The position numbers and the translations under genes are program-made. A stretch of 64,000 nucleotides of DNA from Candidatus Poribacteria bacterium (lineage in GTDB: Bacteria; Poribacteria; WGA-4E; WGA-3G), in assembly GCA_965209095.1 (NCBI GenBank), contig OZ242381.1:4126630-4190629 (forward strand). The letters are read 5' to 3'. This document shows, piece after piece, positions 140 through 54,017 of the stretch (the stretch's first letter is position 1; each line of letters begins with the position of its first letter). The notes under the pieces were generated by a model. It searched no databases. It worked only from the letters and a program-made list of their open reading frames with translations, and was not told the origin of the DNA.

Positions 140-2083
140 TTACGGCCAAAAGTTATACATCGGTTGCTGCGTCACCACACTCATGAGACTCCAAATTCCA
201 CCAATCGTAAAATCCCCCAACATCAATCCAACAGCAAACATCACCAATTGACGTGATGCATGCGGTCCACCGATTTTCAACACAGACCATTTCACAACCG
301 AACTGACCAACATACAACTCCACAAATACCGCATACCCCAATCGCTTGAAACGACAAAGCCAATCGGATGGAAGGGCCACCAGAAAAACCGCGCACGCAT
401 AAACATCAGTCCGGTCGAAAAAAGAAGACCGAATACTATCCCACCTGTCGCATAGAAATTCGGTTCAGTAGGATAGTAAAACCATCTTTGGAGTCCGCTG
501 AAGACACGTTCACCAAAACCGATGTTCCAACTGCTACTCCCACTCATATTCAAGGCACCGTAAGTATAATAGATGTAGAGAATCACCCCAAAGACCATAA
601 TTGAGGCAAACGTGGAAATTCCGAGAAGTGCTAAGAACAACCGCTGCGGTGCAATTGCCGTTCGTTCCGACAGTTTGAATCCCTCTAATTGATGTGGCAT
701 CGGATTGCTCGTATAACTGCGATTGAACCAACGATATAACGTCATGGCAACAAGGTTGTTTGTTCCCAACATGCGTGTGCCGAAACTATCAATGAGAATA
801 TGATGATTCGGCATGTTTTCCATTGCATGCACAGGGAAACCTTGTTCAGCACGCATCCGCGTCAATACCAACACGATGATAAAATAGATGGCAAAAAACA
901 ACGGAATTAGCCATAGTGACATCCCGATTCGATTAGAAAAGATAAAGAGGACCGCAAGTCCCCCAACGATACCCCATAACGCAAATCTATACGGAATAGG
1001 TTCATCGGAATCTTCAGCAGTGCGATGCCGTGCAATACGGAACACGCCTCGTATATGACGCGAATTCAACACCAACACCGAAATGAATATCCCAATGGCA
1101 GCCCCAAAACACTGTCTGTCAATGTATGGAAATCCGGGTAGACTGGACAACCCAACAGCACTTGAGAATACCAATTGTGCTTTATAGAAAAAGAAGAAAA
1201 ACCAGCTGGAAAATGATAGGTCAAGTGGCATCAACAACCCTAATCCGATAACAAAAGGATAATAGGACATACTGATGCCGCCGATGGCATTCCACGGCTT
1301 TTCTGTGAATAGATGTCCAAAACCACGCCATCCACCGATTCGCTTTATTGGTAAGTAGGGAATTGTAGGATATAGATAACTGAATCCGTTGAGGATTGCA
1401 ATAGACGCTGCGATACCGAAACCGATCCACATAATGCGATGCCTAAACAGCGACTTCGTGTTATGTGTAACATGGAAAGCGATTTGTGTAATAGGATAAG
1501 CGAGTCGTTCTCGTTCCACCCATTGCTTTCGGAGTATAACATTGATACATAACATCACCAGCACAAGTGCAGTGATAAACAGTGTCCAAGAAAGTATTGG
1601 AACGAGCCACACGCCGACAATCTCAATCGTCGTCAAATTGGTTTCGCCTTTATAATATCCAGTAAGAGCCTTTGAATCGTCTACAAGAAGCCATCTTGGA
1701 AGGTAGTCCCAAAAGATTTGTTTCCATTCGTTTTCGGGAGTGGCAAACCAGAAGGCATGACCGACGGTTGTGACGAGGATCGTCATTAGAGTAATGGAGG
1801 GAAATGCGCATGCGGTGCTTAGCAGAATGTAGATAGTGAGAAGCTCAGCATCGGAAATTAAGCGGATACGGGTGGTATGGCGAACAATAAGGTTGAACAG
1901 TGTGAATGTGAAAACGACAAAGACAACATTGTAAAATGGGACAGCGTAAGTATTGAGGGCATAACCGACGAGTCCTACTTCACCAGCGATAATCCAGTAG
2001 AAATTGAACGGAATCAACACAAGTGTAATGAGAACAGACTTCCATGTGACTCCGTACGATTTCAACTGTCCATCTTCTTTCAT
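140..2083 (-). CDS. Polytopic membrane protein of unknown family (about 14 predicted TM segments). Paralog of 32774..34702.
   Basis: 647-aa ORF with many hydrophobic segments. Conserved blocks shared with the paralog include NEW..F..YLP.WL, LAYPI.Q, RWxxxPxEPN and WWPFHP.GY. No ABC-permease EAA motif is present. Confidence 0.75.
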   Translation of the reverse strand: MKEDGQLKSYGVTWKSVLITLVLIPFNFYWIIAGEVGLVGYALNTYAVPFYNVVFVVFTFTLFNLIVRHTTRIRLISDAELLTIYILLSTACAFPSITLMTILVTTVGHAFWFATPENEWKQIFWDYLPRWLLVDDSKALTGYYKGETNLTTIEIVGVWLVPILSWTLFITALVLVMLCINVILRKQWVERERLAYPITQIAFHVTHNTKSLFRHRIMWIGFGIAASIAILNGFSYLYPTIPYLPIKRIGGWRGFGHLFTEKPWNAIGGISMSYYPFVIGLGLLMPLDLSFSSWFFFFFYKAQLVFSSAVGLSSLPGFPYIDRQCFGAAIGIFISVLVLNSRHIRGVFRIARHRTAEDSDEPIPYRFALWGIVGGLAVLFIFSNRIGMSLWLIPLFFAIYFIIVLVLTRMRAEQGFPVHAMENMPNHHILIDSFGTRMLGTNNLVAMTLYRWFNRSYTSNPMPHQLEGFKLSERTAIAPQRLFLALLGISTFASIMVFGVILYIYYTYGALNMSGSSSWNIGFGERVFSGLQRWFYYPTEPNFYATGGIVFGLLFSTGLMFMRARFFWWPFHPIGFVVSSDWGMRYLWSCMLVSSVVKWSVLKIGGPHASRQLVMFAVGLMLGDFTIGGIWSLMSVVTQQPMYNFWP

Positions 2084-3411: not shown

Positions 3412-3418
3412 GTTGAGA

Positions 3419-4795: not shown

Positions 4796-4864
4796 GGTTG
4801 TCAATTCTCCTAAATAAGAAATTTCCTTAATCATTGGAAGTAGGTAAAACAAAAATAGATGTAC

Positions 4865-5838: not shown

Positions 5839-6024
5839 GGGGATGTGTAAAGTTTTTGGCACTGCACGTAGGGGCAGGGTTTCCCCGCCCGATTCCCACC
5901 CCTTGCCACATTCCCATCCCAACCACTGCTGATGGATAGGATGTGTTCCAACGAGGGCGAGGGGACCTCGCCCCTACGATGTGTCTGAACGTGAGATAAC
6001 CTTTGCCAAAAACTTTACACACCC
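5839..6024. repeat. Complete family-1 MITE-like element (186 bp).
   Basis: Terminal inverted repeats are GGGGATGTGTAAAGTTTTTGGCA and TGCCAAAAACTTTACACACCC. The interior holds two GC-rich hairpins built on acgtaggggc...gcccctacg. The right end overlaps the ORF-track start of selA. Confidence 0.7.
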
Positions 6025-6092
6025 TCTCCTGGGTATATAAGTTGACATCTGATAGATTATCTGTTAAAATGAACAACATTGAAATATTCTTG

Positions 6093-25949: not shown

Positions 25950-25982
25950 GGCAATTAATGATACCACATCTCTATTCTGATA

Positions 25983-26015
25983 TTCGAACCTAAGTTGCCA
26001 CCTATGTAGCACAAT
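25983..26015. repeat. Solo terminus of the family-2 MITE (AACCTAAGTTGCCACCTATGTAGCACAATCTG).
   Basis: Matches the ends of the elements at 40943..41237 and 54018..54160. Confidence 0.5.
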
Positions 26016-26483
26016 CTGTACGAAGTTCAAATAAATATTTCGGTAATCTATTAGAAAAAACGGTGTTTGTATGTCTAAAATCCTAATGAGATTTGACATT
26101 CAAGTTCGGCAATGACAGACGTAGGGGTTGGGTTTCCCAACTCATCTGGAGCTTTGTTGATTGCACACCGGGTGAGGTTCCCTCGCTCCTACGAATACGC
26201 AATTTGAAAGAAATGAGGATATTCTCATGTTATTAAAACTTATAGAACAACGCCGTAACAGGTACAAGCGATTCGTTTTGATCTATGCTGTTATCAGTTG
26301 TGTTGCAGGATTAATTCTGCTTGGAAGTATCGGTCTGATGCATGCGTTGCATGTATATTCCTTCGACAGCGGTTATCATCGGGCTACTGATTGTGGTGTT
26401 CCAATACATCCCAAACCAACACAACCGCTTTCAAACCAACCGCCATGCTTGTTGGACGCAGGCAGATAAAGGAGGAACCTATC

Positions 26484-26977
26484 ATGAATAAGAAGTTTTA
26501 TTGGGATTAGTTATCCTCATCACTTTACTGGTAGATACTGCATGTGTTGTGTTTCTTCTTCATAAACATGCCCCACAAGAAGCATTTGATTTGTTTGAAT
26601 CGTTTTTTCGATACCATTTTATAGACCAACGCGAAGTCCAAGTGTATTTTTTAGAAATTGAAGGAAAAGACCCACCCTCAGAATTTATGGATCGGTTTGC
26701 TGGGCATTCACCTTCTATAAAGAATGGTTCTGAATTTATATCGGATGGTTTTGAGAATAGTGATGGTATTTTATTTCAAATTGATAGTTGGAGATGGCGC
26801 GGTTGGGGTTGGCTTACCAGAGCTCATGCTGTAATATCTGGTGGATATCGAGATAAATTTGGTGTTTCTTACGCTACTTACATTTTGAAAAGGGAGAAAA
26901 ATAGGTGGACATTGGATCGTGTGGGGCATGGATTTGGCATTGAATTCGTAACTCCACAAATGCCACCAAGCCCATAG
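26484..26977 (+). pseudogene. Frameshifted paralog of the downstream N-anchored protein gene. An ATG with a strong RBS gives MNKKFYWD-stop. A 1-nt shorter G-run than the paralog shifts the frame, and the remaining ORF was called from a TTG at 26501.
   Basis: tattgggattagttatcctcatcact here versus tattggggattagttatcctcatcact at 27008. Adding one G restores MNKKFYWGLVILITLLV..., which continues into the 158-aa ORF. Confidence 0.5.
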
Positions 26978-26987
26978 GAGTAATATT

Positions 26988-28346
26988 ATGGTGACCCGTA
27001 GAATGTATTGGGGATTAGTTATCCTCATCACTCTTGTTGTCACTGCCACAGTGTGGGTAGTGGTACACAACAATGCGGCAATAGAACAAATGAAAGAGGA
27101 GTCAGCTGAACTTTTGCCACAAAGCGATGATCCATCATTGCAAAACACACCGAAACGTGTGGCAGATTCACCAGACTACCAACCGCCCCCGCTTGGCGAA
27201 ACAGATGACACGGGATATTGGGAAGGCAACACGTGGCATCAAAAACCTGCTCCGAAACCGAAAAAAAGAGGGTTCTGGTCAGAGGACATAGATACACTCG
27301 CACATCGGATAATACGCGGTGTTGAGATTAAAAATCCAGAAAGATTCCAGTTAGCGCAACGTATCATCCGTGAATATCCTTATTCCGAAGCTGTGCTCAA
27401 AATGAGGTACACATTCATGCATTACGACGAAAATGGTTATAGTCGTTCACTTGGTGGTGAAGACCAAATAGAGTATCTCAAGGGCATGCTAAAATACCAT
27501 CCGAATTCACCACGTGTGCTGTCAGATTTAGCAATGTATCTGAGCTACGATTCTTCGGAGGAGGCGATTGCTTTTGCTAAAAAGTCGCTGCGTGTAGACC
27601 CATCAAATATAGACGCGCATGATGCATTAGGGACAGCGTATCAACGTTTGGGCGATTACAAAACTGCGTTAGTCCACCTGAAGGCGGGTCAGAAGTTGAG
27701 TGATCCGAATGATGGGTCCCGTTGGGTAGAAATCGTTATAGACGAAAACACGAGCCTTTACAATGACTATGATGAGTTTACGTATGAAATATCTATGATA
27801 GCAGCGGGTACCCCGCGTTATGGTCCGGCACCGCAGCCGCCTGTATCATCGTCTGTGGACGTTCCGATGTTTCCTTCGGATGCTGTGTCTACACCGCCCC
27901 CTGCCCTTGATCCATCGTTTGATCCGTTGTCTACTCCGTTTGATATGCCTGCTGCTTCGTCTGTAGATGAGCGTGACGTTGCTTCAGCAGGGTCTCCTTC
28001 GTGGCGTGATGCTCCTGCGGGACGTGCGCGTGCATCGATGGAAACGGAACGTCGTCGCCGTGAAGAGTTTGATAGTTTTCTGCAATGGATGGAGCAGATA
28101 GAGCGAGCGAAGTCACCTGCGGATTTAGATGACTTTTTGATGCGTGAGATGGCGATGCAGCTGCAAGGTGGGACCTCTGCGTTCACACCGGATCGTTTGG
28201 TGCGTGCGTTTGAAACGTTACAACGTCATGGGGAGCGTCAAGGGCGTATAGAACTTGAAAAGCGCGATGCGGAGTTAGCGCGTGAAATGGAACGGGCAAG
28301 CCCGAAAAACGGTGTGTCTTCTCGGTCTGTCCCGAATAAAAGTTAG
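26988..28346 (+). CDS. N-terminally membrane-anchored hypothetical protein with a TPR-like helical segment, a Pro-rich low-complexity region and a C-terminal coiled coil.
   Basis: 452 aa. The TM helix YWGLVILITLVVTATVWVV is nearly identical to the upstream paralog N-terminus. No catalytic motifs recognised. Confidence 0.55.
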   Translation: MVTRRMYWGLVILITLVVTATVWVVVHNNAAIEQMKEESAELLPQSDDPSLQNTPKRVADSPDYQPPPLGETDDTGYWEGNTWHQKPAPKPKKRGFWSEDIDTLAHRIIRGVEIKNPERFQLAQRIIREYPYSEAVLKMRYTFMHYDENGYSRSLGGEDQIEYLKGMLKYHPNSPRVLSDLAMYLSYDSSEEAIAFAKKSLRVDPSNIDAHDALGTAYQRLGDYKTALVHLKAGQKLSDPNDGSRWVEIVIDENTSLYNDYDEFTYEISMIAAGTPRYGPAPQPPVSSSVDVPMFPSDAVSTPPPALDPSFDPLSTPFDMPAASSVDERDVASAGSPSWRDAPAGRARASMETERRRREEFDSFLQWMEQIERAKSPADLDDFLMREMAMQLQGGTSAFTPDRLVRAFETLQRHGERQGRIELEKRDAELAREMERASPKNGVSSRSVPNKS

Positions 28347-28424
28347 ATTTGCGCATCTAAAATGTTGTAGGTAGCAAATTGAGTTATTCAATGTAAATGG
28401 ACAACAATCCCTAAGTAATGCACA

Positions 28425-29135
28425 ATGTTAGTATCTGTAATCATTCCAGCATATAACGAAGAGCAAACAATTCTACAGGTATTAGAAAATGTGCAAGCGT
28501 TACCGATTCAAAAACAGATTATTGTTGTGAATGATGGTTCTACGGATAACACACATGCACTTCTTGAAAAAGTAAGTGTTGATGCCGAGGTGACTATAAT
28601 TCATCACGAGGTGAATAGAGGAAAAGGTTACGCAATTCGAAGTGGGATACCGCATATTAAGGGTAATTTGGTAATCATTCAGGATGCAGATATGGAACTC
28701 TGTCCGAGTGATATATTGCAGATAGTAGAACCGTTAAAAGATGATAGTGTTAAAGTTGTCTACGGTTCAAGGTTTCTAAATGGTAGAGGAAACGCGAGTC
28801 TTCACAACTATGTAGCAAACAAAATTCTTGCTATCTATACAAATATGCTTTATGGATGTAGAATCACGGATGAGTCTACGGGATATAAAGCATTTTCATC
28901 AAATCTGTTAAAGGCACTAAATTTAACTTGTGAAGGATTTGAATTTTGTCCTGAAGTGACAGCAAAGATATTACGTGGTGGTTTTAAGATTCAGGAAGTA
29001 CCTGTTTCCTATTTTCCACGTTCTAAGAAAGAGGGTAAGAAACTTCGCTTTTTCACGGATGGTTTCTTTGCTGCTTGGACATTGTTGAAATTTCGTTTTA
29101 TTTCAAAGAATAAGATTTTTAAGAAGAATACATGA
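28425..29135 (+). CDS. Family 2 glycosyltransferase (DPM1/GtrB-like).
   Basis: VSVIIPAYNEE, VVNDGSTDNT and a DxD-type motif near QDADME. Confidence 0.8.
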   Translation: MLVSVIIPAYNEEQTILQVLENVQALPIQKQIIVVNDGSTDNTHALLEKVSVDAEVTIIHHEVNRGKGYAIRSGIPHIKGNLVIIQDADMELCPSDILQIVEPLKDDSVKVVYGSRFLNGRGNASLHNYVANKILAIYTNMLYGCRITDESTGYKAFSSNLLKALNLTCEGFEFCPEVTAKILRGGFKIQEVPVSYFPRSKKEGKKLRFFTDGFFAAWTLLKFRFISKNKIFKKNT

Positions 29136-29158
29136 AATATTCAATTGGAGGTTAATGA

Positions 29159-30778
29159 TTGATGATTTATAAAAACATGTTTATTTCCATATTATCTGTT
29201 GTGCTTATTGTGGGTTTTGTTATTTCAGTGCATGGGCACGGAGACGGTTCTACGCTATTAGAAGATGTCAATAACGATGGAACAGTCAACATACAAGACC
29301 TTGTGTTGGTGGCAAATTCGTTTGGACAACCAGGTGATCGGACTTCTGCAACAAATCCTGATGTTAATCGAGATGGTTTTGTTGATATTCTTGACCTTGT
29401 TCGTGTGGCAAACCGATTTGGTGAGACTGAACAGGGAGATAATTCGGCATATCATGACATTCAGGATCACATTTTTGACAAAAGTTGTGCAAATAGTGCA
29501 TGTCATGCACCGCCAACAAATTCTGCAGATTTAAACCTAACTTATGGACAGTCATATCAGGATTTGGTGAACCGGATCCCTCGTAATTCTGCAGCGGCAG
29601 CGGCGGGTATGAAACTCATTGATCCTGACAACCCTGACAACAGTTTCTTATTGACAAAGTTAATGAATATAGAAAATCAAGAGTTTGGGTCGCGCATGCC
29701 ATTTCAGATGGGGCAACTCCATAATGGCAAAATAGAAGCACTTCGAACATGGATTTCAGCTGGTGCACCACAAGAGGGTAAATTGGCAGGTATTGGTGAC
29801 TTAGGTGTCCTTCGTGATCCAGAGGAAAAATTCAATCCACCTAAACCGCCTGCTCCAGGAGAAGGGTATCAACTCTATTTACCACCCTTCAAAATTGAAC
29901 CTGGTACTGAACGAGAAGTCTACTTTGCAACGCAAATCTTGGATGACAACGGTGAACCTATAGAAGAAGACATTTTCATCAATAGAGTTGAGATTTTCTA
30001 TCCATCGGGTAGCCATCACTTCATCATATATCGACTCACAGAAGAAGGGCTTGCAAATGGCATTCTGGATAGAGGGGTAGATACGACAATTGGTGTTGAT
30101 CCAACACACGAATTCAGAGAACTTGATCCGGATGATCCACAAGTTTTGGGTAATTTCGGTATTGATAGGTTGTTTGTAGTAGGAACACAAACCGATGACA
30201 CAACCTTTGCATTTCCTGATAATGTCGCTCTCCGATTACCGGGAAATACGGTCTTTGACCTGAATTCTCACTATATCAACCTACTTGGTGATGAAACGTT
30301 GATCGGTGAAACTTATGTCAATATCTATACTATCCCTGAAGAAGATGTAAAATACGAAGCAATAGAGATATTTGTTTCCAATCGAGCAATCAACGTGCCT
30401 CCCAATACTACACGTGTCGCAAAATTAACTTGGTATGTTGAAGATGAGTTAGAACGTCGAGGACATGATCCTGACACGGAATTGCATGTATTTCTACTTA
30501 CATCACACATGCATAGACACGGTGAATTGTTTGAGATTTTTCAAGACTCAACAGGTGAGTTATTACACCGTAGTATAGCTTATGACGATGCCCCAATTAC
30601 ACTATTTCCCTCACCGATAATTTTAAGTGTGGACGACGGTATAAGTTTCCAATGCACCCATAACAATTACGATATAGATGGACCGCTTCAATTCGGACTT
30701 ACCTCCGAAGATGAGATGTGTATTATCTTCGGTTATTATTTCATTCCAATAGAAAAGGCTGGAGAAACAATCAAATAG
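29159..30778 (+). CDS. Secreted protein combining a dockerin repeat pair, a PSCyt1-like (planctomycete cytochrome-c-like) domain and a PHM/DBH-like copper type II monooxygenase domain.
   Basis: Signal peptide present. Dockerin repeats DVNNDGTVNIQDLVLVANSFG and DVNRDGFVDILDLVRVANRFG. The PSCyt1-like segment reads CANSACH...LNL...L..G...LIDPDNPDNSFLLTKL....RMP.....L....IEALRTWISAGA. The C-terminal 300 aa carries an HH pair at residues 286-287, H-x-F-x4-H-M-H-x2-G at 443-455 and Met520 in DEMC about 70 aa later. Confidence 0.6.
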   Translation: MMIYKNMFISILSVVLIVGFVISVHGHGDGSTLLEDVNNDGTVNIQDLVLVANSFGQPGDRTSATNPDVNRDGFVDILDLVRVANRFGETEQGDNSAYHDIQDHIFDKSCANSACHAPPTNSADLNLTYGQSYQDLVNRIPRNSAAAAAGMKLIDPDNPDNSFLLTKLMNIENQEFGSRMPFQMGQLHNGKIEALRTWISAGAPQEGKLAGIGDLGVLRDPEEKFNPPKPPAPGEGYQLYLPPFKIEPGTEREVYFATQILDDNGEPIEEDIFINRVEIFYPSGSHHFIIYRLTEEGLANGILDRGVDTTIGVDPTHEFRELDPDDPQVLGNFGIDRLFVVGTQTDDTTFAFPDNVALRLPGNTVFDLNSHYINLLGDETLIGETYVNIYTIPEEDVKYEAIEIFVSNRAINVPPNTTRVAKLTWYVEDELERRGHDPDTELHVFLLTSHMHRHGELFEIFQDSTGELLHRSIAYDDAPITLFPSPIILSVDDGISFQCTHNNYDIDGPLQFGLTSEDEMCIIFGYYFIPIEKAGETIK

Positions 30779-30885: not shown

Positions 30886-32763
30886 ATGCCTATAGATTCC
30901 AAATCAAACAACTTCTTGAATGCCTTGTCGAACCGAGTGCTGGTTTGTGATGGTGCCATTGGAACAGAACTTCGGAAACGGATCAAGGCATTACTTCCTT
31001 GCGTGGATGCTTGTAATATCATTGAAGAATATGCAGATGAAGTAGTCAAGATTCATACTGCTTATGTGAATGCGGGTGCTGATGTAATTCAAACCAACAC
31101 ATATCAAGCGAATAGGGAAGCATTGTCTATACATGGATTTGGTGATAAAGTAGATGAGATTAACCGTGTTGGTGTTAGATTAGCGCGACGTGCTGCAGGA
31201 AACCAACGGTTTGTCGCAGGTTCGGTTGGTGAAATATCCTTCAACATTGACAATGCTACAGACGCAGATATTGAACCATCCACCAAAAGAATTAGAACGC
31301 TATTTCAAGAACAGATGGATGCACTTGTAGATGAAGGTATTGATCTGTTAATATTAGAGACCTTTGTATCACAGAAACAAGCGGAGATTGCCACGAAGCA
31401 GGCACTAACTTACGATGTACCCGTTATAGTTGAAATAAGTGGTATTTCTGGTGGTACAGTTGGATCAGGATTAGATGTTAGAGTGTTTGCTCAGGAACTG
31501 GAACAATTAGGTGCACATGTAGTCGGTATCAATTGCAGAGGCCCCCACGACCTCGTTCAAGCGATGGAACTTCTTGCACCTGTGATCAGTGTGCCACTTG
31601 TTGTGCAACCCAATGCAGGAAATCCAAGAGTAGAACAGGGAGAAATAACCGTTTCTTACACCGTAGATTCAGATGTGTTTACGGACTATGTTCAAAAACT
31701 GATAAAGCTTGGTGCAAATATGATTGGTGGGTGTTGCGGTACGACACCTGAATATATCGCGAAGATTCAGGCAGCAGTTGGACAACAAAAACCGATAAAA
31801 CGAGTTCCGCGTATCTTTGTTCTACCCAAGAGTTCACCGTCTATTAAGACGCGCACAGACAATCCAGTTCAGCAAGTATTTGAGACTCGTCAACGCATTG
31901 TTAGTGTGGAAGCACGAGCAAATACTTTCCCACAACTACGTGCATTGTTGAAAGAAGCAAAGGTATTGGCGGCAATGGGGGTTGATCTCTTTGATGTAAC
32001 AGACAATTCTGGTGCGGCAGTCAACATAGGTGCGATCGGCACAGCATTTCGTCTACAACAAGCAACACACATTCCAACACTCATCCATTGGACAACGCGA
32101 TCTCGAAACCTCATCAGCATGCAATCACATCTGTTGGAAGCAGAGGCGTTGGGAATACGGGGGATTGTGGCACTGTCGGGTGATCATCCGAAGGCAGGAC
32201 CTTTTGAATCTGCAAGTCTTGTTCCTGATGTGCGTGGTGCAGTTCAATTGATGAAACTCATCTCCAGACTCAATCAAGGTGAACTTGCTGACGGTTCGTC
32301 AATTGGAGATCCGTGTGGGTTTTACATTGGCGGGGGTTTTACGATTGCTGAGAATCTTGATCCACATCTCAAGCATCTACGGAATAAGGTTGCGGCAGGT
32401 GCAAAATTTGCTTATACACAACCTGTGTGGACATTTGAGGACATCGTACGATCTCAGAAAGCAACAGAGGATATCGGAATAAAGATACTATATGGGATCT
32501 TACCATTAACAAGTTTCCGAAGTGCATCCTACCTACGCGATAATTTAGGTTTGTATATTCCTCAATTAATTGTGGACAAGTTCCGTGATCTTGGGGATAC
32601 TGCTGGAAACGAACTCGGTATGAAATTGACACTTGACCTTGTTCGTGAAATCCGAAATCAGGATACAGTCGCTATTGATGGTATCTATCTAATCCCGCCT
32701 GCCCGATTAAACTGGAGAAACAGACGTGGTGTCATCTCAGAAATCGTAAAAGTCTACCGTTAG
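30886..32763 (+). CDS. Bifunctional homocysteine S-methyltransferase / 5,10-methylenetetrahydrofolate reductase (YitJ-like fusion).
   Basis: N-terminal Hcy-binding domain blocks (VLVCDGAIGTEL, DVIQTNTYQAN) and the zinc-ligand region GGCCGTTPEYI. The C-terminal 300 aa resemble MetF/MTHFR (FDVTDNSGA, LSGDHP). 625 aa, comparable to B. subtilis YitJ. Confidence 0.8.
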   Translation: MPIDSKSNNFLNALSNRVLVCDGAIGTELRKRIKALLPCVDACNIIEEYADEVVKIHTAYVNAGADVIQTNTYQANREALSIHGFGDKVDEINRVGVRLARRAAGNQRFVAGSVGEISFNIDNATDADIEPSTKRIRTLFQEQMDALVDEGIDLLILETFVSQKQAEIATKQALTYDVPVIVEISGISGGTVGSGLDVRVFAQELEQLGAHVVGINCRGPHDLVQAMELLAPVISVPLVVQPNAGNPRVEQGEITVSYTVDSDVFTDYVQKLIKLGANMIGGCCGTTPEYIAKIQAAVGQQKPIKRVPRIFVLPKSSPSIKTRTDNPVQQVFETRQRIVSVEARANTFPQLRALLKEAKVLAAMGVDLFDVTDNSGAAVNIGAIGTAFRLQQATHIPTLIHWTTRSRNLISMQSHLLEAEALGIRGIVALSGDHPKAGPFESASLVPDVRGAVQLMKLISRLNQGELADGSSIGDPCGFYIGGGFTIAENLDPHLKHLRNKVAAGAKFAYTQPVWTFEDIVRSQKATEDIGIKILYGILPLTSFRSASYLRDNLGLYIPQLIVDKFRDLGDTAGNELGMKLTLDLVREIRNQDTVAIDGIYLIPPARLNWRNRRGVISEIVKVYR

Positions 32764-32773
32764 CACCTTTTCA

Positions 32774-34702
32774 ATGTCAACACATGGTCATCAAACCTCA
32801 ACGAAGCATATCACAGGACGTTCACTTCTCTTAGGTGTCCTTCTCATACCAATCAATGTTTACTGGATGACAATCGTTGAGGTGAAATACTACTCTCTTG
32901 ACGGATCATGCCTTCCACTGTTTATTCAGCCTGTCTTTATCATGTTTGTGTGTGCTGTTGCCAATGTCTCGTTGAAACGTATAGCACCACAATATATGCT
33001 GCGTCAAGGTGAGTTATTGACTGTCTATATTATGGTGGCAATTTCCTGCACATTTGCTGGACACGACGCTATGCAGAATATGTTTGGCAGTATTGCTCAT
33101 CCATTCCGTTTTGCAACGGAAGAGAATGAATGGCAGACACTGTTTTTTCGGTATCTTCCATCTTGGCTTACCGTGTCAGATCCTCTGAGTCTACAAGGAT
33201 TTTATGAAGGTGATGCCAGTTTCTATACCAGCCATAATTTTTCTGTGTGGTTAAAACCGTTATTATATTGGGGACTCTTTTTTCTTACGATGATGTTTAT
33301 GATGCTATGCATCAACACACTTGTCCGCAAACGGTGGGCAGAACAGGAGAAATTGGCTTATCCGATCATACAACTTCCATTGCATTTATCAGAAGCAGGT
33401 GGCATTAGTCTGTTGAAGAATAGAATGATGTGGATAGGATTTACGATAGCAGTGATTATTGGTGTCATAAACGGGATCAATTATCTGTTTCCACAGTTTC
33501 CACTGATCCCGTATATCAAGCGGACAGCAGTTTTTCAAGACATCTTCACAGAACGACCGTGGAGTGCGATACGAGGGACTCGTATCTCCATATATCCGTT
33601 TGCTGTTGGGTTGGCATTTTTTCTACCACTGGATCTATCATTTTCGTGTTGGTTTTTCTTTGTTGTACGGTTAGCAGAATTTGTGGTTGCGGCTGCACTT
33701 GGCACCCGATATTTTCCTGCCTTAAATGAACAGGCTTACGGAGCTTGGGTTGCGCTATTCGTTCTTGCAGTGTGGGTAACTCGTAGTCATTTGAAAGGTG
33801 TATTGAAAAAGGCACTGTGGTTCAGTTCTGATATAGATGACTCAAATGAACCGATGTCATATCGTGCTGCGATGTTAGGTATTATCGGATCGCTTATTGC
33901 ACTTGGCATCTTTGCCAATATTGCAGGAATGGCTTTATGGATTGCAGGTATATTCTTCGGTGTATATTTTCTTCTATCATTTGCGATCACTCGTGTTCGC
34001 GCTGAACTCGGCACCCCACATGAAATCTATTATGTCAACCCACACGATATGTTGGCTACTGTAGGTGGAACGCGTCAGTTTGATACAAGCAGTCTTACAA
34101 TCATGTCACTGTTTTATTGGTTCAATCGAGGCTATCGTAATCACCCTATGCCGAATCAGATTGAAGCATTTAAGTTGGCAGAGTCAACTGGGATGGGGAA
34201 CCGTCGGTTGTGGGTTGCGATGCTCATTGCGATTGTGGTTGGTATTATAGCAACTTTTTGGGCGAATCTTGACATTACATTCCGTAATGGGGCAGTAGCA
34301 AAGGCAGGTGGATTCAAGGGATGGGTCGGTAGAGAGTCATTTGGTAGACTTCAACGTTGGTTACATAATCCATCTGAACCGAATGTTGTTGGTATTGGGT
34401 TTATGGGGATTGGTGCGTTATTGACATTTGTTATGATGTATATGCGGATGCATTTCTTGTGGTGGCCATTCCATCCTGCTGGTTATGCACTTGCGATTAG
34501 TTTTGCGATGGATTATTTCTGGTTTGCGTTCTTTGTCGCATGGTTCTTGAAGTTATTGATATTACGTCATGGGGGGCTGAAGTTACATCGTAAAGTTGCA
34601 CCTCTATTCTTAGGTTTGATTTTGGGCGATTATGTTATTGGTAGTGTTTGGGCTATTATAGGACCTGCAACAGGGTTGCGGACTTACAAGATATTCATCT
34701 AA
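32774..34702 (+). CDS. Polytopic membrane protein of unknown family. Paralog of 140..2083, lying 11 bp downstream of the Hcy-methyltransferase/MTHFR gene.
   Basis: 642 aa with about 14 TM segments. Shares many conserved blocks with the 140..2083 protein. Confidence 0.75.
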   Translation: MSTHGHQTSTKHITGRSLLLGVLLIPINVYWMTIVEVKYYSLDGSCLPLFIQPVFIMFVCAVANVSLKRIAPQYMLRQGELLTVYIMVAISCTFAGHDAMQNMFGSIAHPFRFATEENEWQTLFFRYLPSWLTVSDPLSLQGFYEGDASFYTSHNFSVWLKPLLYWGLFFLTMMFMMLCINTLVRKRWAEQEKLAYPIIQLPLHLSEAGGISLLKNRMMWIGFTIAVIIGVINGINYLFPQFPLIPYIKRTAVFQDIFTERPWSAIRGTRISIYPFAVGLAFFLPLDLSFSCWFFFVVRLAEFVVAAALGTRYFPALNEQAYGAWVALFVLAVWVTRSHLKGVLKKALWFSSDIDDSNEPMSYRAAMLGIIGSLIALGIFANIAGMALWIAGIFFGVYFLLSFAITRVRAELGTPHEIYYVNPHDMLATVGGTRQFDTSSLTIMSLFYWFNRGYRNHPMPNQIEAFKLAESTGMGNRRLWVAMLIAIVVGIIATFWANLDITFRNGAVAKAGGFKGWVGRESFGRLQRWLHNPSEPNVVGIGFMGIGALLTFVMMYMRMHFLWWPFHPAGYALAISFAMDYFWFAFFVAWFLKLLILRHGGLKLHRKVAPLFLGLILGDYVIGSVWAIIGPATGLRTYKIFI

Positions 34703-36954
34703 TCTGGTCGTGTTTTAATTTTCATTTGCAGTTCACCTGTTTCAACATTCCATTTATGAAACCATCTTGTATCAATATCAGTACTTATTAGACTTTCACC
34801 ACTTGGTAAGAACTCATAAGCATCTATCGGTCCTCCAACCGCTTCAATAGTAGCTTTGAGTTTTCCCGTATTTAAATCCCATACGTGAAGTAAAACAGGA
34901 TCTCCTTTGCTAATTAAAGTATTCCCATCTGGAGACATAATGATCTGCGAGTGACTATATCCGTTCTTCTCAAGTATTGAACGGAGTGTGCCAGTATCTG
35001 TTTCCCATAACCGAATAGTTTTGTCAAGACTGCCGCTAACCAAAGTTTTTCCATTTTTTGTAAATTCAAGGTAATGGATCCAAGATGTATGTCCTTCAAG
35101 AGTCGCACTTTGTTTAGTATCAAGATTATATAACCATATTGTGTCATCCGAACTTGCACTTGCAAGCTTATTTCCATTTTCTGTAAACCTTATGAGATTG
35201 ATCTTGCCTGTATGTCCTTCATAAGTTGCTATTGGTTGTGCGTTTTGCACCGATGATATGTCCCAAAGCAGAATCTTGTTATCATGACATGCACTTGCAA
35301 GTAATTTTCCATTGGAAGATAATTCCATTGTATGAACACCTGCGGTGTGTTCTTTGAGTGTTACCTTATGTTCACCTGTTTTCGTGTCCCACAGACGTAT
35401 TGTGCTGTCACGGCTTGCACTGAACAGCGTTTTGCCATCTGGTGAAAATGCAAGGTCATCAATCCAAGACGTATGTCCATTGAGTGTTGTCTTGAGTTTT
35501 CCATTTCTTGTGTTCCATAGTCGAATCTGACTGTTATTCCAACCGTTTCCTGTAGCGATCGTTTTGGCATCAGGAGATAGTGCAACAGAATATATTTGTG
35601 CGAATTCGTCTTTAATTGTCACTCTGTGTTTACCAGAATCTGCATTCCATAGAGCGATGTCGTTGTTACTTATACTAACAAAGGTTTTTCCATCCTTGGC
35701 AAAAAAAGTAGATTTAACAGGAGACTGATAGTAGACTGGTGTTTCATGGACTTCACTGAGTTTCGTTCCTTTACGTGGAATTTTCCCGATATTAGTATTA
35801 CCTGATAGTATTTTATTTAGAGGCGGTTGCAGGAAGACAATCACGTATTGCCATCCAGCAAAGGAATCTTCAACGATATAGGTTACAGTGCTGACATCTG
35901 GTGAAAATTTAATTGGAGCACTATTCCGAATCCGATCATCCGAGATCGTTCTCTTATGCTTTCCAGTTTTTACATCCCATATACGTATACTATTCCAATG
36001 TGTATCACTCATACTTGCTAACATATTCCCGTCGGGTGAAAAATCTAAAGTAGTAACTCCCGCAACAAATATATAAGGTTTTGAAAGTGTTTTTATGTGT
36101 TGTGCCTTACTTACATCCCACAGCAAAATTTCTTGGTAACTGCCACCAGCAAGAATGTTACCGTCAGGTGAAAAAGCGAGAGATTCAACACTGCCTCTAT
36201 GTCCGGTTAGAGAGTTTAGTCTTTTTCCTGTGTTTGGATTCCATAAGATTATTTCCTGAAAACCCGCACTTGCAAGGACCTTTCCATCTGGAGAAAATTC
36301 GGCATCATAAACTTCGTCTGTATGTCCTTCCAGAGTATGTTTTAGATTACCTGTGTTAATATCCCACAACGCAATTCTCTGAATTCCGGTTAATGCGATA
36401 GTATTACCGTCTGGTGAAAACGCGGTCAAATTGCTCGCAGATACTTTGATAGACTTTAGTAAATGACCTGTTTGGACATCCCAAACCCTTATCATATCAT
36501 CAGATCCTTCACTCGCGATTTTTTTACTGTCAGGAGAAAATAGAATGGAGTAAGTTACATCTGTTGGTTCAAATATTGATAGTATTTCTTCACCATTGAT
36601 TGGATTCCATAATTGAATTTCATCATTTCGGTTATTCACACTTGCTAATATATTTCCATCATGAGAAAACTCAACCATATCGTACCATCCACCATAGGGA
36701 TGTGTATCGTCTTTGATGGTTAACTTTTTTTCATAAGTGTGTGCGTCAAATAACCATATTTCATCTGTAGCTGCTATAGCAAATCGGTTTCCATCTGGAG
36801 AATACTCGAAATCCTTTATTGCAGAAGATTCCATGATACTTAGAGCATCAACTGTTATAGGAAGATGCATAATGACATAGAAGAATGAACATATTGAGAT
36901 TATGAAAACAAGATATGAGTTTAGAATGTATTGGTTGAATTTAATGCCTTTCAT
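34699..36954 (-). CDS. WD40-repeat beta-propeller protein with an N-terminal TM/signal anchor (751 aa).
   Basis: Many WD units of the type FSPDG..LAS.S.D..I.LWD. An N-terminal hydrophobic helix is present. The stop overlaps the stop of the convergent membrane gene. Confidence 0.8.
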   Translation of the reverse strand: MKGIKFNQYILNSYLVFIISICSFFYVIMHLPITVDALSIMESSAIKDFEYSPDGNRFAIAATDEIWLFDAHTYEKKLTIKDDTHPYGGWYDMVEFSHDGNILASVNNRNDEIQLWNPINGEEILSIFEPTDVTYSILFSPDSKKIASEGSDDMIRVWDVQTGHLLKSIKVSASNLTAFSPDGNTIALTGIQRIALWDINTGNLKHTLEGHTDEVYDAEFSPDGKVLASAGFQEIILWNPNTGKRLNSLTGHRGSVESLAFSPDGNILAGGSYQEILLWDVSKAQHIKTLSKPYIFVAGVTTLDFSPDGNMLASMSDTHWNSIRIWDVKTGKHKRTISDDRIRNSAPIKFSPDVSTVTYIVEDSFAGWQYVIVFLQPPLNKILSGNTNIGKIPRKGTKLSEVHETPVYYQSPVKSTFFAKDGKTFVSISNNDIALWNADSGKHRVTIKDEFAQIYSVALSPDAKTIATGNGWNNSQIRLWNTRNGKLKTTLNGHTSWIDDLAFSPDGKTLFSASRDSTIRLWDTKTGEHKVTLKEHTAGVHTMELSSNGKLLASACHDNKILLWDISSVQNAQPIATYEGHTGKINLIRFTENGNKLASASSDDTIWLYNLDTKQSATLEGHTSWIHYLEFTKNGKTLVSGSLDKTIRLWETDTGTLRSILEKNGYSHSQIIMSPDGNTLISKGDPVLLHVWDLNTGKLKATIEAVGGPIDAYEFLPSGESLISTDIDTRWFHKWNVETGELQMKIKTRPD

Positions 36955-37239: not shown

Positions 37240-39375
37240 TTATCTCCTTGGTTGTAGATTAGGATTGTCCAATTTCCAAAGTAGAATAGTACTGCCAACA
37301 CTTGCAATAGTTTTTTCATCTTTAGAAACTATAAATGTATCAATATAATCTGGTTGTGCGTCAAGGGTCAATTTTGGTTCCCACGTTTCTGTGTTCAAAA
37401 ACTCGATCATGTTTCCACTTATACTTACTAATGTATTTCTATCTGGGTAAAATGAAACTGGTTGATACCCAAATAGTGTTTTCTTATACGCTCCAGTCTT
37501 TGTATCCCATAACAGAGTATGTCCAAAATAACTTGTGGTTGCTACGGTTTCACCATCAGGAAAAAAGACTATTGAACTGACACTTTCTGTATGCCCTATA
37601 AGTGTAGCAATGAGTTCAAAAGTCTCTGTATTCCATAATCGTACTGTTTCGTCAAGACTTGCACTTGCTAAAATACTTTTATCGGGTGAGAAGACAATAA
37701 AATCCACACCACCAGTATGTCCTTTCAGCGTTGTTATATGTTCACCAGTATTGACATTCCATATTGGAATACGACCACCTCCCAGACCTATCAACATTTG
37801 ACTATCTGAAAAAAATTCAACGGAATTAACGTTGTAGTCCTTGATATCCATTGTCAATTTATGATCAGCTGTGCCTACATTCCAGAGTTCAAGTGTGGGT
37901 TCAGAACTTGTAGCACGACTGACTAAAGTTTTGCCATCAGGCGAAAAATGTAGTAACTGTAATCTACCTTTCTTACCTGTAGAAATTATCCTTTCTCCTT
38001 CACCCGTTTTTGTGTTCCACAATTGTATAATTGGAGGATCATTCCAATTATTTACCCTATTAATTCCAATTGCTACCATAATTCCATCTGAAGATATTGA
38101 AGCAACATCACCTGAATAGGTTCTAATTAGCTTTTGCGTATTTATATCCCAGATCTGTATATGGTTCAGATACCAACAGGCAATTGCATTTCCATCGTGA
38201 ATGATCATTGCATTAGATTGTACTGAGATATGTTTTTCATTGATTGGCGTATGTTCTCCTGTAGTAATATCCCATAGTCCCAGATCATTCGCGAGTTTTT
38301 TGCCGTCAGGTGAAAACACTAATGTGTTGTTTTCTGATTTGATATCAAGGAGCGTTTTTTCAATTTCTCTTGTATTCATATCCCATATATTGATTTTGTC
38401 TTGTTCGTAGCTTGCATATTTTTTCCAATTTGGAGAGATAAATATGCGTCCTTTATGTTCCCATGTAGGATTGCCGGTCCTAACATCCCACAATTTGGAG
38501 TTATTTTTGTGTATTGTTACTATCGTCCTATTGTCTGGAGAAAAAGCAATGAAATTGGTGTCATATAGACCAACATTAAATTTCTCTTTGAATGTTCTGA
38601 TATTTTTACCAGATTTCGTGTCCCATAACCGGAGCGTTCCATCATAGGTAAGACTAACGAGCATACGGTTATCTCGTGAAAAAGCAACAGAATAGACTAC
38701 GTCTTTATAGTTGAGAGGCTTTGATGGCATATTGAGTTTGTGAATCTGTTGACCGGTTTCTGCATTCCATATTCGAGATGTACCATCATCACTACCACTT
38801 GCCAACATACTATTGTCTGGTGAGAAGGAAATCGCTGTTACATCACTTGTATGTCCTTTAATGTTATTCATGTTCTCACCAGTGTTTGTATTCCACAATT
38901 TAATAGTCCTATCCTTGCTTGCAGTTGCAATTGTATTGCCATCAGATGCATACACAATACTCGTAATATCTTTTGTATGACCTTTTAGTGTTGTTCTGAG
39001 ATTTGCTTGGATTGGGTCATAAGATATATCCCATAATTCAACAGCCTTATCCGATGGATCATTAGCAGCAAACATCGTTCCATCAGGTGAAAAGACAATG
39101 TTTGACACATTTATAGGCAGTAGCCTAATTTCTTTGTATGTCGTTGCGTCATAAATCCATAAACCTATCGTACTTGGTATTATTATCTTTGTGCTATCTG
39201 GAGAAAAAACAATTTTATCTGTGATGTAGCCCTTTCCAATGCGTGCAATTGCACCTTCAGGTAATTCCCATTTTGAATATTCTTGGGTAAAACCGATTGA
39301 GAGTATTTGCATCATTGAGAGGATGATTGTGATAAAGTATTTCATGGATTTTAATTTACCTAATACAAAATTCAA
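37240..39375 (-). CDS. Secreted WD40-repeat beta-propeller protein (711 aa) with signal peptide.
   Basis: The N-terminal signal is MKYFITIILSMMQILS. Numerous WD40 units are present (GHT..V.S..FSPD...LAS.S.D.T.RLWN). Confidence 0.8.
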   Translation of the reverse strand: MNFVLGKLKSMKYFITIILSMMQILSIGFTQEYSKWELPEGAIARIGKGYITDKIVFSPDSTKIIIPSTIGLWIYDATTYKEIRLLPINVSNIVFSPDGTMFAANDPSDKAVELWDISYDPIQANLRTTLKGHTKDITSIVYASDGNTIATASKDRTIKLWNTNTGENMNNIKGHTSDVTAISFSPDNSMLASGSDDGTSRIWNAETGQQIHKLNMPSKPLNYKDVVYSVAFSRDNRMLVSLTYDGTLRLWDTKSGKNIRTFKEKFNVGLYDTNFIAFSPDNRTIVTIHKNNSKLWDVRTGNPTWEHKGRIFISPNWKKYASYEQDKINIWDMNTREIEKTLLDIKSENNTLVFSPDGKKLANDLGLWDITTGEHTPINEKHISVQSNAMIIHDGNAIACWYLNHIQIWDINTQKLIRTYSGDVASISSDGIMVAIGINRVNNWNDPPIIQLWNTKTGEGERIISTGKKGRLQLLHFSPDGKTLVSRATSSEPTLELWNVGTADHKLTMDIKDYNVNSVEFFSDSQMLIGLGGGRIPIWNVNTGEHITTLKGHTGGVDFIVFSPDKSILASASLDETVRLWNTETFELIATLIGHTESVSSIVFFPDGETVATTSYFGHTLLWDTKTGAYKKTLFGYQPVSFYPDRNTLVSISGNMIEFLNTETWEPKLTLDAQPDYIDTFIVSKDEKTIASVGSTILLWKLDNPNLQPRR

Positions 39376-47146: not shown

Positions 47147-47653
47147 ATGCTATTTGATAAAAAACATTTATACGCAGTTACACTTACTATATTTTCAGTA
47201 TGTATTTTACTTACTGCTGGACTAATATCTGGTTGTGGAGATGAAGGTGATCCTCCTACAGAGATGGTCAACGGAAATGGTGATAAAACACCAGATCCCG
47301 ATCCTGATCCTACAGATCCTGTTGTTGATCCCGATCCTGATCCTGTTGATCCTCCTGCCCCTGGTGTAACCTTTAAGGATGATATTATGCCAATCCTTGC
47401 ACAAACTTGTGCCATTGCTAATTGCCATGACAATACTGCTCTAAAAGGACTAAATCTTACCACTTATGACAACTTCAAGAAAGGTGGCAATAGTGGTCCT
47501 GCCTTTGTAGCAGAGGATGCGGACAACAGTCTCGTTGTAAAGTATATTAAAGGAGAAGAGCAACCTCAAATGCCCATTGGTGGAAATCCACTAAATGCAG
47601 ACGAAATTCAGCTTTTTGTTGATTGGATCAATGCAGGTGCTGAAAATAATTAA
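47147..47653 (+). CDS. Lipoprotein with a Pro/Asp-rich linker and a PSCyt1-like cytochrome-c-type domain.
   Basis: The lipobox is LISGC. The linker reads PDPDPDPTDPVVDPDPDPVDPP. The domain reads CAIANCH...LKGLNL....KGGNSGPAFVAEDADNSLVVKYI.....MP.GGNPL...EIQLFVDWINAGA. Confidence 0.65.
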   Translation: MLFDKKHLYAVTLTIFSVCILLTAGLISGCGDEGDPPTEMVNGNGDKTPDPDPDPTDPVVDPDPDPVDPPAPGVTFKDDIMPILAQTCAIANCHDNTALKGLNLTTYDNFKKGGNSGPAFVAEDADNSLVVKYIKGEEQPQMPIGGNPLNADEIQLFVDWINAGAENN

Positions 47654-49557: not shown

Positions 49558-50874
49558 CAGGGTTATTTAGTTTTCGGTATTTTAGTCGTTTTTTATCACA
49601 AACGTTAATAATTTTAGATACGCAGAAATAGCGTGAAAAATCACGCTATTTCTGCTATACTTCACCTTAAAAATCTTAACCCTTTGAGGTGAAAAATGAC
49701 AGAGAATAACTCTCGCCACTTGTTAGATAGATTAGCAGAAATCGAAGACCCGCGCAACGAAAAAGGAAAACGACATCCGTTGAATTCAATCCTTGGCCTT
49801 AACATTATTGGTTTTATGACTGGACATAAAGGATATACATCCACCGCAAAGTGGGCACGATCTCAACCAGATCTCGTCCAAGCACTCGGTTTTACACACG
49901 AGAAATCACCTTGTTCCGCAACGATACATAATGTTCTAAAAATATTAGATGCGGATACTGTTGAAAAGACATTTACAAACTGGGTAGAAGATGTTTGTCC
50001 AAGTCGGTCTGATTTAGCAGGATGTCTTGACGCAGTCGCTATAGACGGTAAAACGATGCGTGCCTCCAAAAAAAGTGGTGCGGCAATAAGCCATTTACTC
50101 TCCGTTGTTTCTCATGAGTTAGGGGTTACCCTGACACAACAAGGTATCAGGGACAAAACCAACGAAATACCGATTTCAACAGAGATCCTCAAAAACTTTG
50201 ATGTGAGTGGTAAAGTCATCACAACAGATGCGCTTTTGACACAGAAAACTTTCTGCCAAGAAATCATAGAGGGTGATGGAGACTATGTGCTCCCTGTCAA
50301 AAACAACCACCCCGACCTTTGCGATGATATCCAAAAACTCTTTCAAGATGTTCCTGACACACCTTCACAAGACGCTACACATCCTCTATTGGGAGACCCT
50401 ATTGACACTCACGAGACTTATGAAAAATCACATGGTAGAATTGAGACAAGATGCCTAAAAGCAAGCACAAGTCTCAACGCATATCTGGACTGGCCAGGGA
50501 TAGAACAGGTGATCCAATATCGTTATATTCACGAAAACCCAAATACAGGAGAAGAAACAACCAAAGTCACCTATGGTATTACAAGTCTGACACCCGAAGC
50601 AGCTACTGCCGAACGCTTACTTGAACTACGCCGTGGGCATTGGTCTATAGAGAACAAATCGCATTGGATCCGAGATACTCAACTTGGAGAAGACGCATCG
50701 TCTGTCCGATGCGGTGCTATTCCGCAGGTTATGGCTGCTTTGCGAAATGCAGCATTAGCAGTATTGAGATTTGATGGCGTTACAAGTATAGCTGATAAAA
50801 TAAAATATTATGCTTCAAAACCTTTACTCGCAGTTAACTTGATAACTGAATGTTTTTAAAACTAAATAACCCTG
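49558..50874 (+). mobile_element. Intact ISAs1-family insertion sequence (1317 bp) with 15-bp terminal inverted repeats and a 9-bp target-site duplication.
   Basis: Left inverted repeat CAGGGTTATTTAGTT (49558..49572). Right inverted repeat AACTAAATAACCCTG (50860..50874). Direct repeat TACCCGACC at 49549..49557 and 50875..50883. Confidence 0.75.
49696..50859 (+). CDS. ISAs1-family (H-repeat-associated, DDE_Tnp_1-like) transposase.
   Basis: 387 aa. VAIDGKTMRAS, TTDALLTQK and RRGHWSIENKSHWIRD are characteristic ISAs1 transposase blocks. Confidence 0.8.
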   Translation: MTENNSRHLLDRLAEIEDPRNEKGKRHPLNSILGLNIIGFMTGHKGYTSTAKWARSQPDLVQALGFTHEKSPCSATIHNVLKILDADTVEKTFTNWVEDVCPSRSDLAGCLDAVAIDGKTMRASKKSGAAISHLLSVVSHELGVTLTQQGIRDKTNEIPISTEILKNFDVSGKVITTDALLTQKTFCQEIIEGDGDYVLPVKNNHPDLCDDIQKLFQDVPDTPSQDATHPLLGDPIDTHETYEKSHGRIETRCLKASTSLNAYLDWPGIEQVIQYRYIHENPNTGEETTKVTYGITSLTPEAATAERLLELRRGHWSIENKSHWIRDTQLGEDASSVRCGAIPQVMAALRNAALAVLRFDGVTSIADKIKYYASKPLLAVNLITECF

Positions 50875-53822: not shown

Positions 53823-54017
53823 CTGATACCTCAATAACGAATTAGTCTTTTTAATATATAGACGCGATTTTGAGGAAAAGAATTGCATTTTTTTGAAAAA
53901 AGCGTATTCTCAAAGAAATGTATGGGTTTTAGTTCAGAGAAGTCAGAAGTTGTATGTAGGGTAGTATGAAATGGTATTACATACCAGGTAGGTGAATATT
54001 GAACTATTTATTATTCA

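Follow-up and report, generated by a model that had tools for sequence, protein, structure and literature searches.

Gene organization and domain structure

We have analysed a stretch of 64,000 nucleotides from the genome of a Candidatus Poribacteria bacterium (GenBank assembly GCA_965209095.1, contig OZ242381.1, positions 4,126,630 to 4,190,629 of the forward strand), hereafter the window. The analysis is focused on one gene at positions 29,159 to 30,778, predicted to encode a secreted protein in which a dockerin and a cytochrome-c-like module precede a two-copper core similar to that of the animal enzymes peptidylglycine alpha-hydroxylating monooxygenase (PHM) and DBH. An initial annotation, made by a model from the nucleotide sequence and its translated open reading frames (ORFs), had proposed a secreted protein with the order dockerin, PSCyt1-like domain and copper monooxygenase. 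Pfam, fold and profile matches uphold this order, and the residues that it named (the HH pair, HVFLLTSHMHRHG, DEMC and the two calcium-binding loops) are all found in the translation exactly where it had placed them. The features of the gene are the following:

29147..29151, plus strand: Shine-Dalgarno-like GGAGG, 10 nt 5' of the ATG at 29162 (read from the sequence)
29159..30778, plus strand: whole gene, secreted dockerin / cytochrome-c-like / PHM-like copper monooxygenase, 539 aa (ORF list and translation)
29159..29236, plus strand: signal peptide, aa 1-26, predicted cleavage between ISVHG and HGD (by inspection)
29261..29419, plus strand: type I dockerin, aa 35-87, with two Ca-binding loops (Pfam Dockerin_1, PF00404)
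29447..29773, plus strand: cytochrome-c-like (PSCyt1-related) module, aa ~97-205, about 110 aa (BLASTP to PSCyt1-positive repeats)
29486..29506, plus strand: putative heme c attachment motif C110-ANSA-C115-H116 (CANSACH, a C-x4-CH motif; conservation and alignment to CxxCH)
29696..29698, plus strand: Met180 in an R-M-P motif, putative sixth (axial) heme ligand (conservation and alignment to the MP motif of PSCyt1-positive repeats)
29858..30343, plus strand: N-terminal catalytic beta-sandwich (CuH domain), aa ~234-395, with H286, H287 and H371 (fold and profile alignment)
30344..30751, plus strand: C-terminal catalytic beta-sandwich (CuM domain), aa ~396-531, with H450, H452, M520 and a C499-C521 pair (Pfam Cu2_monoox_C)

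The first codon of the 539-codon ORF is a TTG, directly followed by an ATG at 29162. The latter is probably the true start, since the orthologues begin at the equivalent Met. A scan for promoters and terminators around the gene was uninformative, the only terminator-like match falling within the coding sequence. The N terminus consists of a short basic n-region, a 17-residue hydrophobic core and small residues at positions -3 and -1. This pattern is conserved in 29 orthologues, in which the cleavage site reads [AV]-x-[GS] followed by His, and we infer that the segment is a Sec signal peptide. The His that follows the site (His27; aa 25-27 are encoded at 29231-29239) is invariant in the 29 orthologues and would be the mature N terminus if the cleavage prediction is right. 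A mature protein opening with His27 would recall lytic polysaccharide monooxygenases (LPMOs), whose copper is held by a "histidine brace", and, much more speculatively, His27 might form an extra copper site.

The dockerin is recognised by Pfam with 43.8 bits against a cut-off of 22.9 (E 3e-11). It has the duplicated loop and helix, with the calcium-binding loops DVNNDGTVNIQD and DVNRDGFVDILD, and it matches dockerins of the PDB at E values of 1e-5 to 1e-7 (2y3n at 1e-5). We have compared the loci of the best 80 of at least 564 matches to the cytochrome and monooxygenase unit in species-representative genomes (one genome per species). All 80 are from Poribacteria and all of them carry the dockerin.

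The two-copper catalytic core

The C-terminal half of the core was already visible in precomputed Pfam annotations. Cu2_monoox_C (PF03712) matches aa 437-530 with 30.3 bits over a gathering cut-off of 23 (E 3.4e-7) and is present in all 29 orthologues (best E 1.3e-11). The lack of any significant match to the copper monooxygenase family, named beforehand as grounds for refutation, thus did not occur. The PROSITE signatures of copper type II monooxygenases are, as we take them to be, H-H-M-x2-F-x-C (signature 1) and H-x-F-x4-H-T-H-x2-G (signature 2). The stretch HVFLLTSHMHRHG, at residues 443-455, corresponds to the second save for a T to M change. The HH pair stands at residues 286-287 and DEMC at 518-521, with M520 located 70 residues past H450.

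In order to obtain a fold for the whole unit we have used AlphaFold. A model derived from the 29 close orthologues was too poor (predicted local distance difference test score, pLDDT, of 53) and was replaced by one built from a diverse alignment of 65 sequences, which gave a pLDDT of 87.9 and a pTM of 0.77 for aa 95-539. When this model was compared to the PDB with Foldseek, about thirty PHM structures and DBH came on top, with E values of 4e-11 to 3e-15 over some 320 columns. The best values were 2.6e-15 for PHM and 1e-14 for DBH, and the alignment spans both beta-sandwich domains. The structure prediction and fold superposition that had been suggested as a check thus recover the PHM/DBH fold in both halves of the core, the N-terminal domain being recognised, in the model, by fold alone. 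Sequence comparison to the PDB improved with the depth of the query, from E ~1 to PHM for the single protein to 0.03-0.1 for a shallow profile and 1e-4 (PHM and DBH) for a deep profile of the family.

The profile alignment places SHHF opposite VH107-H108-M of PHM and NSHY opposite QVH172-Y, both contributing ligands of the CuH site. The HH sub-alignment is weak by itself and is consistent with the fold match. At the CuM site, SHMHRHG is opposite VH242-T-H244-HLG and SEDEMC opposite SSDEM314-C. The offset between the two numberings was confirmed by counting residues in each chain. As a conservation sample we have aligned 134 diverse relatives containing both domains to the hidden Markov model of the family. 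H286, H371, H450 and H452 are present in all of them, H287 in 133 and M520 in 131 (a His in the other three), and the ligand residues are invariant among relatives with identities as low as ~27%. Both sets of copper ligands are thereby borne out at PHM-equivalent positions, as the initial annotation had suggested. Judging from the predicted model and these alignments, the core is a PHM/DBH-type two-domain fold with six putative ligands at the positions equivalent to those of PHM.

The cytochrome-like middle module

The relationship of the middle module to cytochromes was established through intermediates. The same module is repeated two to five times in proteins that lack the monooxygenase and that mix CxxCH with Cx4CH motifs (P0167, P0175, P0189 and others), as in multiheme proteins. 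One of these, P0167, passes the Pfam PSCyt1 model at 2.1e-19, and its last repeat also matches Cytochrome_CBB3 (5.6e-9) and Cytochrom_C (1.6e-7). The target module aligns to the four repeats of P0167 with BLASTP E values of 1e-21, 1e-18, 3e-16 and 1e-6. In this alignment CANSACH falls opposite C--IGCH (a two-residue gap) and the Met of the RMP motif opposite the Met of another RMP. The family profile also found weak matches in the PDB to the heme c domains of FoxE and of the alpha subunit of hydrazine synthase.

Compared to Pfam PSCyt1 (PF07635) and the class I cytochromes c, the module has the same layout, namely C..CH, then PG.P..S.L, the Met of (R)MP and a W-I..GA helix. It differs in remaining below all Pfam cytochrome thresholds and in having C-x4-CH in place of CxxCH. 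The partner domains of PSCyt1 proteins are usually PSD/DUF15xx modules, whereas here the partner is a copper monooxygenase. The proposal of a PSCyt1-like domain stands, then, as to homology with PSCyt1- and Cytochrom_C-positive repeats and fails as to a direct Pfam match; by sequence, the module is homologous to c-type cytochromes and linked to PSCyt1 only transitively.

The putative heme ligands are conserved. A C...CH motif is found at the same alignment position in all 134 two-domain relatives, as CX4CH in 91, CXXCH in 34 and CX3CH in nine. No relative departs from Cys110, Cys115, His116, Pro181 or Trp198, and 133 of the 134 have a Met at position 180. Both CX3CH and CX4CH are routinely counted among heme c attachment motifs (PMC10734462). 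On the strength of these sequence patterns we consider it probable that the module binds heme c.

The window contains a second protein of this kind:

47147..47653, plus strand: 168-aa protein resembling a lipoprotein, with a PSCyt1 domain (Pfam score of 31.9 bits, cut-off 22)

It has a lipobox-like LISGC, a Pro/Asp-rich linker and a C-x4-CH variant, CAIANCH, and is 30% identical to the target module (BLASTP E 4e-5). The C-x4-CH variant therefore recurs in this Poribacteria genome. More speculatively, this lipoprotein is a candidate redox partner of the target enzyme.

A large bacterial family with a conserved fusion

The initial annotation had considered PHM-like enzymes to be rare in bacteria, and this turned out not to be the case. 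A search of aa 95-539 against 1.84 billion cluster representatives gave 2898 matches at E<=1e-3, 689 at <=1e-10 and 77 at <=1e-30, to which the species-representative genomes mentioned above can be added. The wider taxonomic spread is derived from these cluster searches. In the domain-architecture survey that had been proposed, the cytochrome and monooxygenase combination is kept across many proteins of 430-560 aa. They span the entire unit and belong to Bacteroidota, Kapabacteria, Gemmatimonadota and Poribacteria, the named sources being Spirosomataceae, Leadbetterella, Chitinophagales, Kapabacteria, Longimicrobiales and Poribacteria. The closest relatives form more than 120 orthologue clusters of 71-88% identity and the same length, and every named one comes from Candidatus Poribacteria.

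The accessory parts vary along these lineages and include the dockerin in Poribacteria, sorting tails of the type IX secretion system in Bacteroidota, FG-GAP repeats, or nothing at all. From the sequences, the conserved unit is the cytochrome and monooxygenase fusion and the variable parts are export or anchoring devices, fitting an extracytoplasmic enzyme. Such a location is suggested because the variable parts are all of that nature, and also by the signal peptide and the dockerin.

Several Poribacteria genomes contain two or three copies (OY762722.1, CBDHGE010000001.1 and the VYFM01 bin). Some are tandem duplicates located between the GT2 glycosyltransferase gene and the MetH-like gene that flank the target (2028-3659 and 3686-5341 in locus L029; also in L039 and L064). 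In other Poribacteria genomes the second or third copy is an unlinked paralogue with 57-68% identity.

Comparison with known enzymes

PHM makes amidated peptide hormones and DBH noradrenaline, both in animals. The target differs from PHM (the core of PAM; PDB 1sdw, 1phm, 1opm) in several respects, beginning with an identity of only 13-16%, a bacterial host, and the N-terminal cytochrome-c-like domain and dockerin. PHM resides in secretory granules and the target would be periplasmic or surface-located. Ascorbate is presumably not its reductant, considering the fused cytochrome-like domain. The substrate site is also different. In the substrate structures of PHM, as we understand them, R240, N316 and Y318 hold the C-terminal carboxylate of the glycine-extended peptide, and these residues align to T448, I522 and F524 of the target. 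None of the 134 relatives has an Arg at the position of R240 (T, S, F, V, A or Q are found instead), and at that of N316 an I, L or V is present in 120 and an Asn in three. Because the carboxylate-binding residues are absent, the sequence indicates that the substrate is not a glycine-extended peptide and that the target is not a peptide-amidating PHM (EC 1.14.17.3).

With respect to DBH, tyramine beta-monooxygenase and MOXD (PDB 4zel), the difference lies in the additional domains. The extra domain of DBH is a DOMON beta-sandwich without covalent heme, whereas that of the target is a helical c-type cytochrome-like module, and the C-terminal dimerisation domain of DBH is missing in the target. 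A functional analogy, without homology, can be drawn with the cytochrome of cellobiose dehydrogenase and its LPMO partners, in which a heme domain feeds single electrons to an extracellular copper oxygenase. The target likewise carries a targeting module of the type found in carbohydrate systems, the dockerin. The two systems differ in that the heme of cellobiose dehydrogenase is of type b and its domain is part of a separate flavoenzyme, and in that LPMOs contain one copper, bound by a histidine brace.

A standard survey of metalloproteomes lists PHM and DBM as eukaryote-only cuproproteins (PMC7435645). Our own literature search, incomplete in its coverage, found no paper on bacterial PHM/DBH-like enzymes or their cytochrome fusions, nor any on dockerins or cohesins of Poribacteria. 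What we describe thus combines a catalytic fold already known with a new, putative electron-donor module in the same chain, a combination of which an earlier description may exist elsewhere.

A proposed mechanism

Taken together, these observations suggest an exported, self-sufficient copper monooxygenase with a heme c domain as its electron donor, a reading that we favour as a whole with some reservation. The Sec signal peptide would export the protein from the cytoplasm, and the dockerin would tether it to a partner that carries a cohesin and is located in the envelope or at the cell surface. The middle module would be a small c-type cytochrome of class I, akin to PSCyt1, with heme attached through C110 and C115 and coordinated by H116 and M180, joined by a Pro-rich linker to the PHM/DBH-type core. 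The heme would accept electrons one at a time from a donor in the periplasm or at the surface and hand them on to CuH, playing the role of ascorbate, as the architecture suggests. By analogy with the chemistry of PHM and DBH, CuH (H286, H287, H371) would act as the electron-transfer copper and deliver the second electron, and CuM (H450, H452, M520) would bind and activate O2 and hydroxylate a C-H bond of the substrate. The replacement of ascorbate by the fused heme domain, which the initial annotation had raised, is plausible.

Several of the results weigh against this proposal. All members of the family are labelled "hypothetical protein" or named after an accessory domain. Of the two Pfam models that a PHM-like enzyme was expected to match, the significant hit to Cu2_monoox_C has no counterpart in Cu2_monooxygen (PF01082), for which no match was found at E<10 in the target or in the 29 orthologues. 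Similarly, the copper type II signatures that had been read in the sequence hold for signature 2, one residue off, and not for signature 1, where the target has HHFIIYRL. As for the middle module, neither PSCyt1 nor any other Pfam cytochrome family matches the target protein at E<10, only two of the 29 orthologues match PSCyt1 (E values of 0.068 or more), and a comparison of the target protein to NCBIfam was uninformative. C-x4-CH is a minority heme motif whose maturation in Poribacteria is putative, and scans of the window and of the neighbourhoods showed no cytochrome c maturation genes. The loop containing the motif (aa 111-121) is the sole low-confidence stretch of the AlphaFold model (pLDDT <50), something to be expected because the prediction is of the apo protein. 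Finally, no cohesin was found among the ORFs of the window of at least 150 aa, and no conserved partner or substrate gene is common to five non-orthologous loci described below.

Gene neighbourhood

The target gene lies among the following genes:

25950..28424, plus strand: block with an 80-aa ORF, a 158-aa ORF and a 452-aa N-anchored tetratricopeptide repeat (TPR) protein, between the short-chain dehydrogenase/reductase (SDR) and GT2 genes
28425..29135, plus strand: GT2 glycosyltransferase (Pfam Glycos_transf_2), ending 23 nt 5' of the target gene
30886..32763, plus strand: 625-aa fusion of homocysteine S-methyltransferase (PF02574) and methylenetetrahydrofolate reductase (PF02219), 107 nt 3' of the target gene (the MetH-like gene)
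32774..34702, plus strand, and 140..2083, minus strand: two paralogous large polytopic membrane proteins with DUF6785 and DUF6784

The GT2 gene is probably co-transcribed with the target gene, judging from the sequence, and the initial annotation had suggested that both, together with the N-anchored protein, may form part of an envelope-modification operon. The enzyme would then hydroxylate a glycan, a lipid-linked sugar or an envelope protein within the same pathway as the glycosyltransferase. Beyond the short distance on the same strand, this idea draws on the adjacency of GT2 to the target in 54 Poribacteria loci with identities of 69-91%. The rest of the neighbourhood is kept just as well, though. 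The order SDR, GT2, target, MetH-like and DUF6785 is found in about 54 of 57 loci with at least 69% identity, the methyltransferase/reductase fusion follows the target in about 55 Poribacteria loci, and one of the DUF6785/DUF6784 paralogues is syntenic with it across Poribacteria at 83-94% identity. Since the unrelated SDR, MetH-like and DUF6785 genes are conserved equally, the GT2 adjacency looks like general synteny, limited to one orthologue group with its housekeeping neighbours.

Outside that group the association is lost. Among the 80 loci, none of the paralogues with 57-68% identity has this gene order, and GT2 is missing from them as well as from the Bacteroidota and other relatives examined. 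A paralogue with 64% identity and the five non-orthologous loci (L001, L002, L004, L005 and L006/L007) have unrelated neighbours and no GT2. In certain Poribacteria genomes GT2 and the target are separated by another copy of the gene. The block that holds the TPR protein, which has a Pro/Ser-rich and Arg/Glu-rich tail, is without counterpart in all 80 related Poribacteria loci, where SDR abuts GT2. By this comparison the block is a genome-specific insertion, and an operon shared with the TPR gene, which is unique to this genome, is discarded. We therefore regard a common pathway with GT2 as rather unlikely. In the Spirosomataceae locus L001, a 79-aa Cys_rich_CWC gene (7594-7833) is located directly 5' of the homologue, and was unseen in the other loci examined.

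Alternative explanations

Another possibility is that the PHM-like copper core is real and the middle module carries no heme, having instead a structural, disulfide-bonded or other metal-binding role (for example in binding the substrate or a partner), with electrons supplied by an external reductant. The lack of a direct Pfam cytochrome match, the non-canonical C-x4-CH and the low confidence of the motif loop could all be understood in this way. Against it, 133-134 of the 134 relatives have the two Cys, the His and the distal Met, with only two, three or four residues separating the Cys, which is the pattern of heme attachment and not that of a structural disulfide. The homology to domains positive for PSCyt1 and Cytochrom_C, together with the flexibility expected of a heme loop in an apo model, points in the same direction, leaving a heme-free module as an unlikely option.

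It is also conceivable that the two-copper core is not a hydroxylase at all. It could be an oxidase or redox relay, that is, a terminal module reducing O2 or H2O2 with extracytoplasmic electrons, or it could be involved in copper handling. The absence of a conserved substrate-related neighbour in the loci examined would fit such a role, as would the fusion to an electron-transfer domain and the presence of the cytochrome module in multi-domain proteins that resemble electron-transfer proteins. What speaks for the hydroxylase is the Met ligand typical of an O2-activating CuM site, retained in all but three of the relatives. To our knowledge, moreover, all the enzymes characterised so far that combine this fold with the His3 and His2Met ligand sets (PHM, DBH, TBH) are C-H hydroxylases. 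We find an oxidase or relay quite improbable.

Lastly, a true PHM involved in peptide amidation, perhaps acquired from the animal host, could be imagined from PHM being the best structural match, the PHM-like SHxH..G and S.DEMC motifs and the life of Poribacteria in sponges, but the low identity and the replacement of the carboxylate-binding residues make it hardly credible, and a recent transfer from the host, given the spread of the family across free-living bacterial phyla, has been rejected.

Other features of the window

The remainder of the window contains several other genes that deserve mention. Three large WD40 beta-propeller proteins of 711-751 aa are encoded on the minus strand (34699-36954, 37240-39375 and 61757-63949). 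Their repeats are eukaryote-like, and proteins of this type have been reported from sponge symbionts. Three consecutive genes for sigma factors of the extracytoplasmic function type, also on the minus strand (51975-53888, 54169-57060 and 57331-60159), have very long C-terminal extensions, two of which carry BNR/Sortilin-like beta-propeller repeats, and are unusual as sigma-factor fusions. On the plus strand, a selenocysteine synthase gene, SelA (6003-7550), shortly overlaps a gene for a formylglycine-generating (sulfatase-modifying) enzyme (7537-8373), and a DDE transposase (DDE_Tnp_1 with its associated N-terminal domain; 49696-50859) points to an insertion sequence.

Significance

PHM and DBH are textbook animal enzymes, in which the long-range electron transfer between the uncoupled coppers, about 11 Å apart in PHM, is still debated. 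In bacteria there is a large and conserved family that shares this fold and all six ligand residues and is permanently fused to an apparent one-electron donor. One could go further and see in the target the first example of a widespread class of self-sufficient extracytoplasmic oxygenases in which heme c replaces ascorbate at the uncoupled two-copper site, equivalent, with two coppers, to the LPMO systems driven by cytochromes. The Poribacteria enzymes would then be mounted through the dockerin on a cohesin scaffold at the cell surface, where they would oxidise polymeric or host-derived (sponge-matrix) substrates. This extended scenario we put forward as a doubtful one.

If the self-sufficient enzyme proposed here does bind heme, it would provide a soluble bacterial model in which the heme makes it possible to trigger electron entry at CuH and to monitor it by optical means, and it would show how chemistry of the PHM/DBH type proceeds without ascorbate. 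It would also point to extracytoplasmic hydroxylation as a common activity in Bacteroidota and in sponge symbionts, with their two or three copies per genome.

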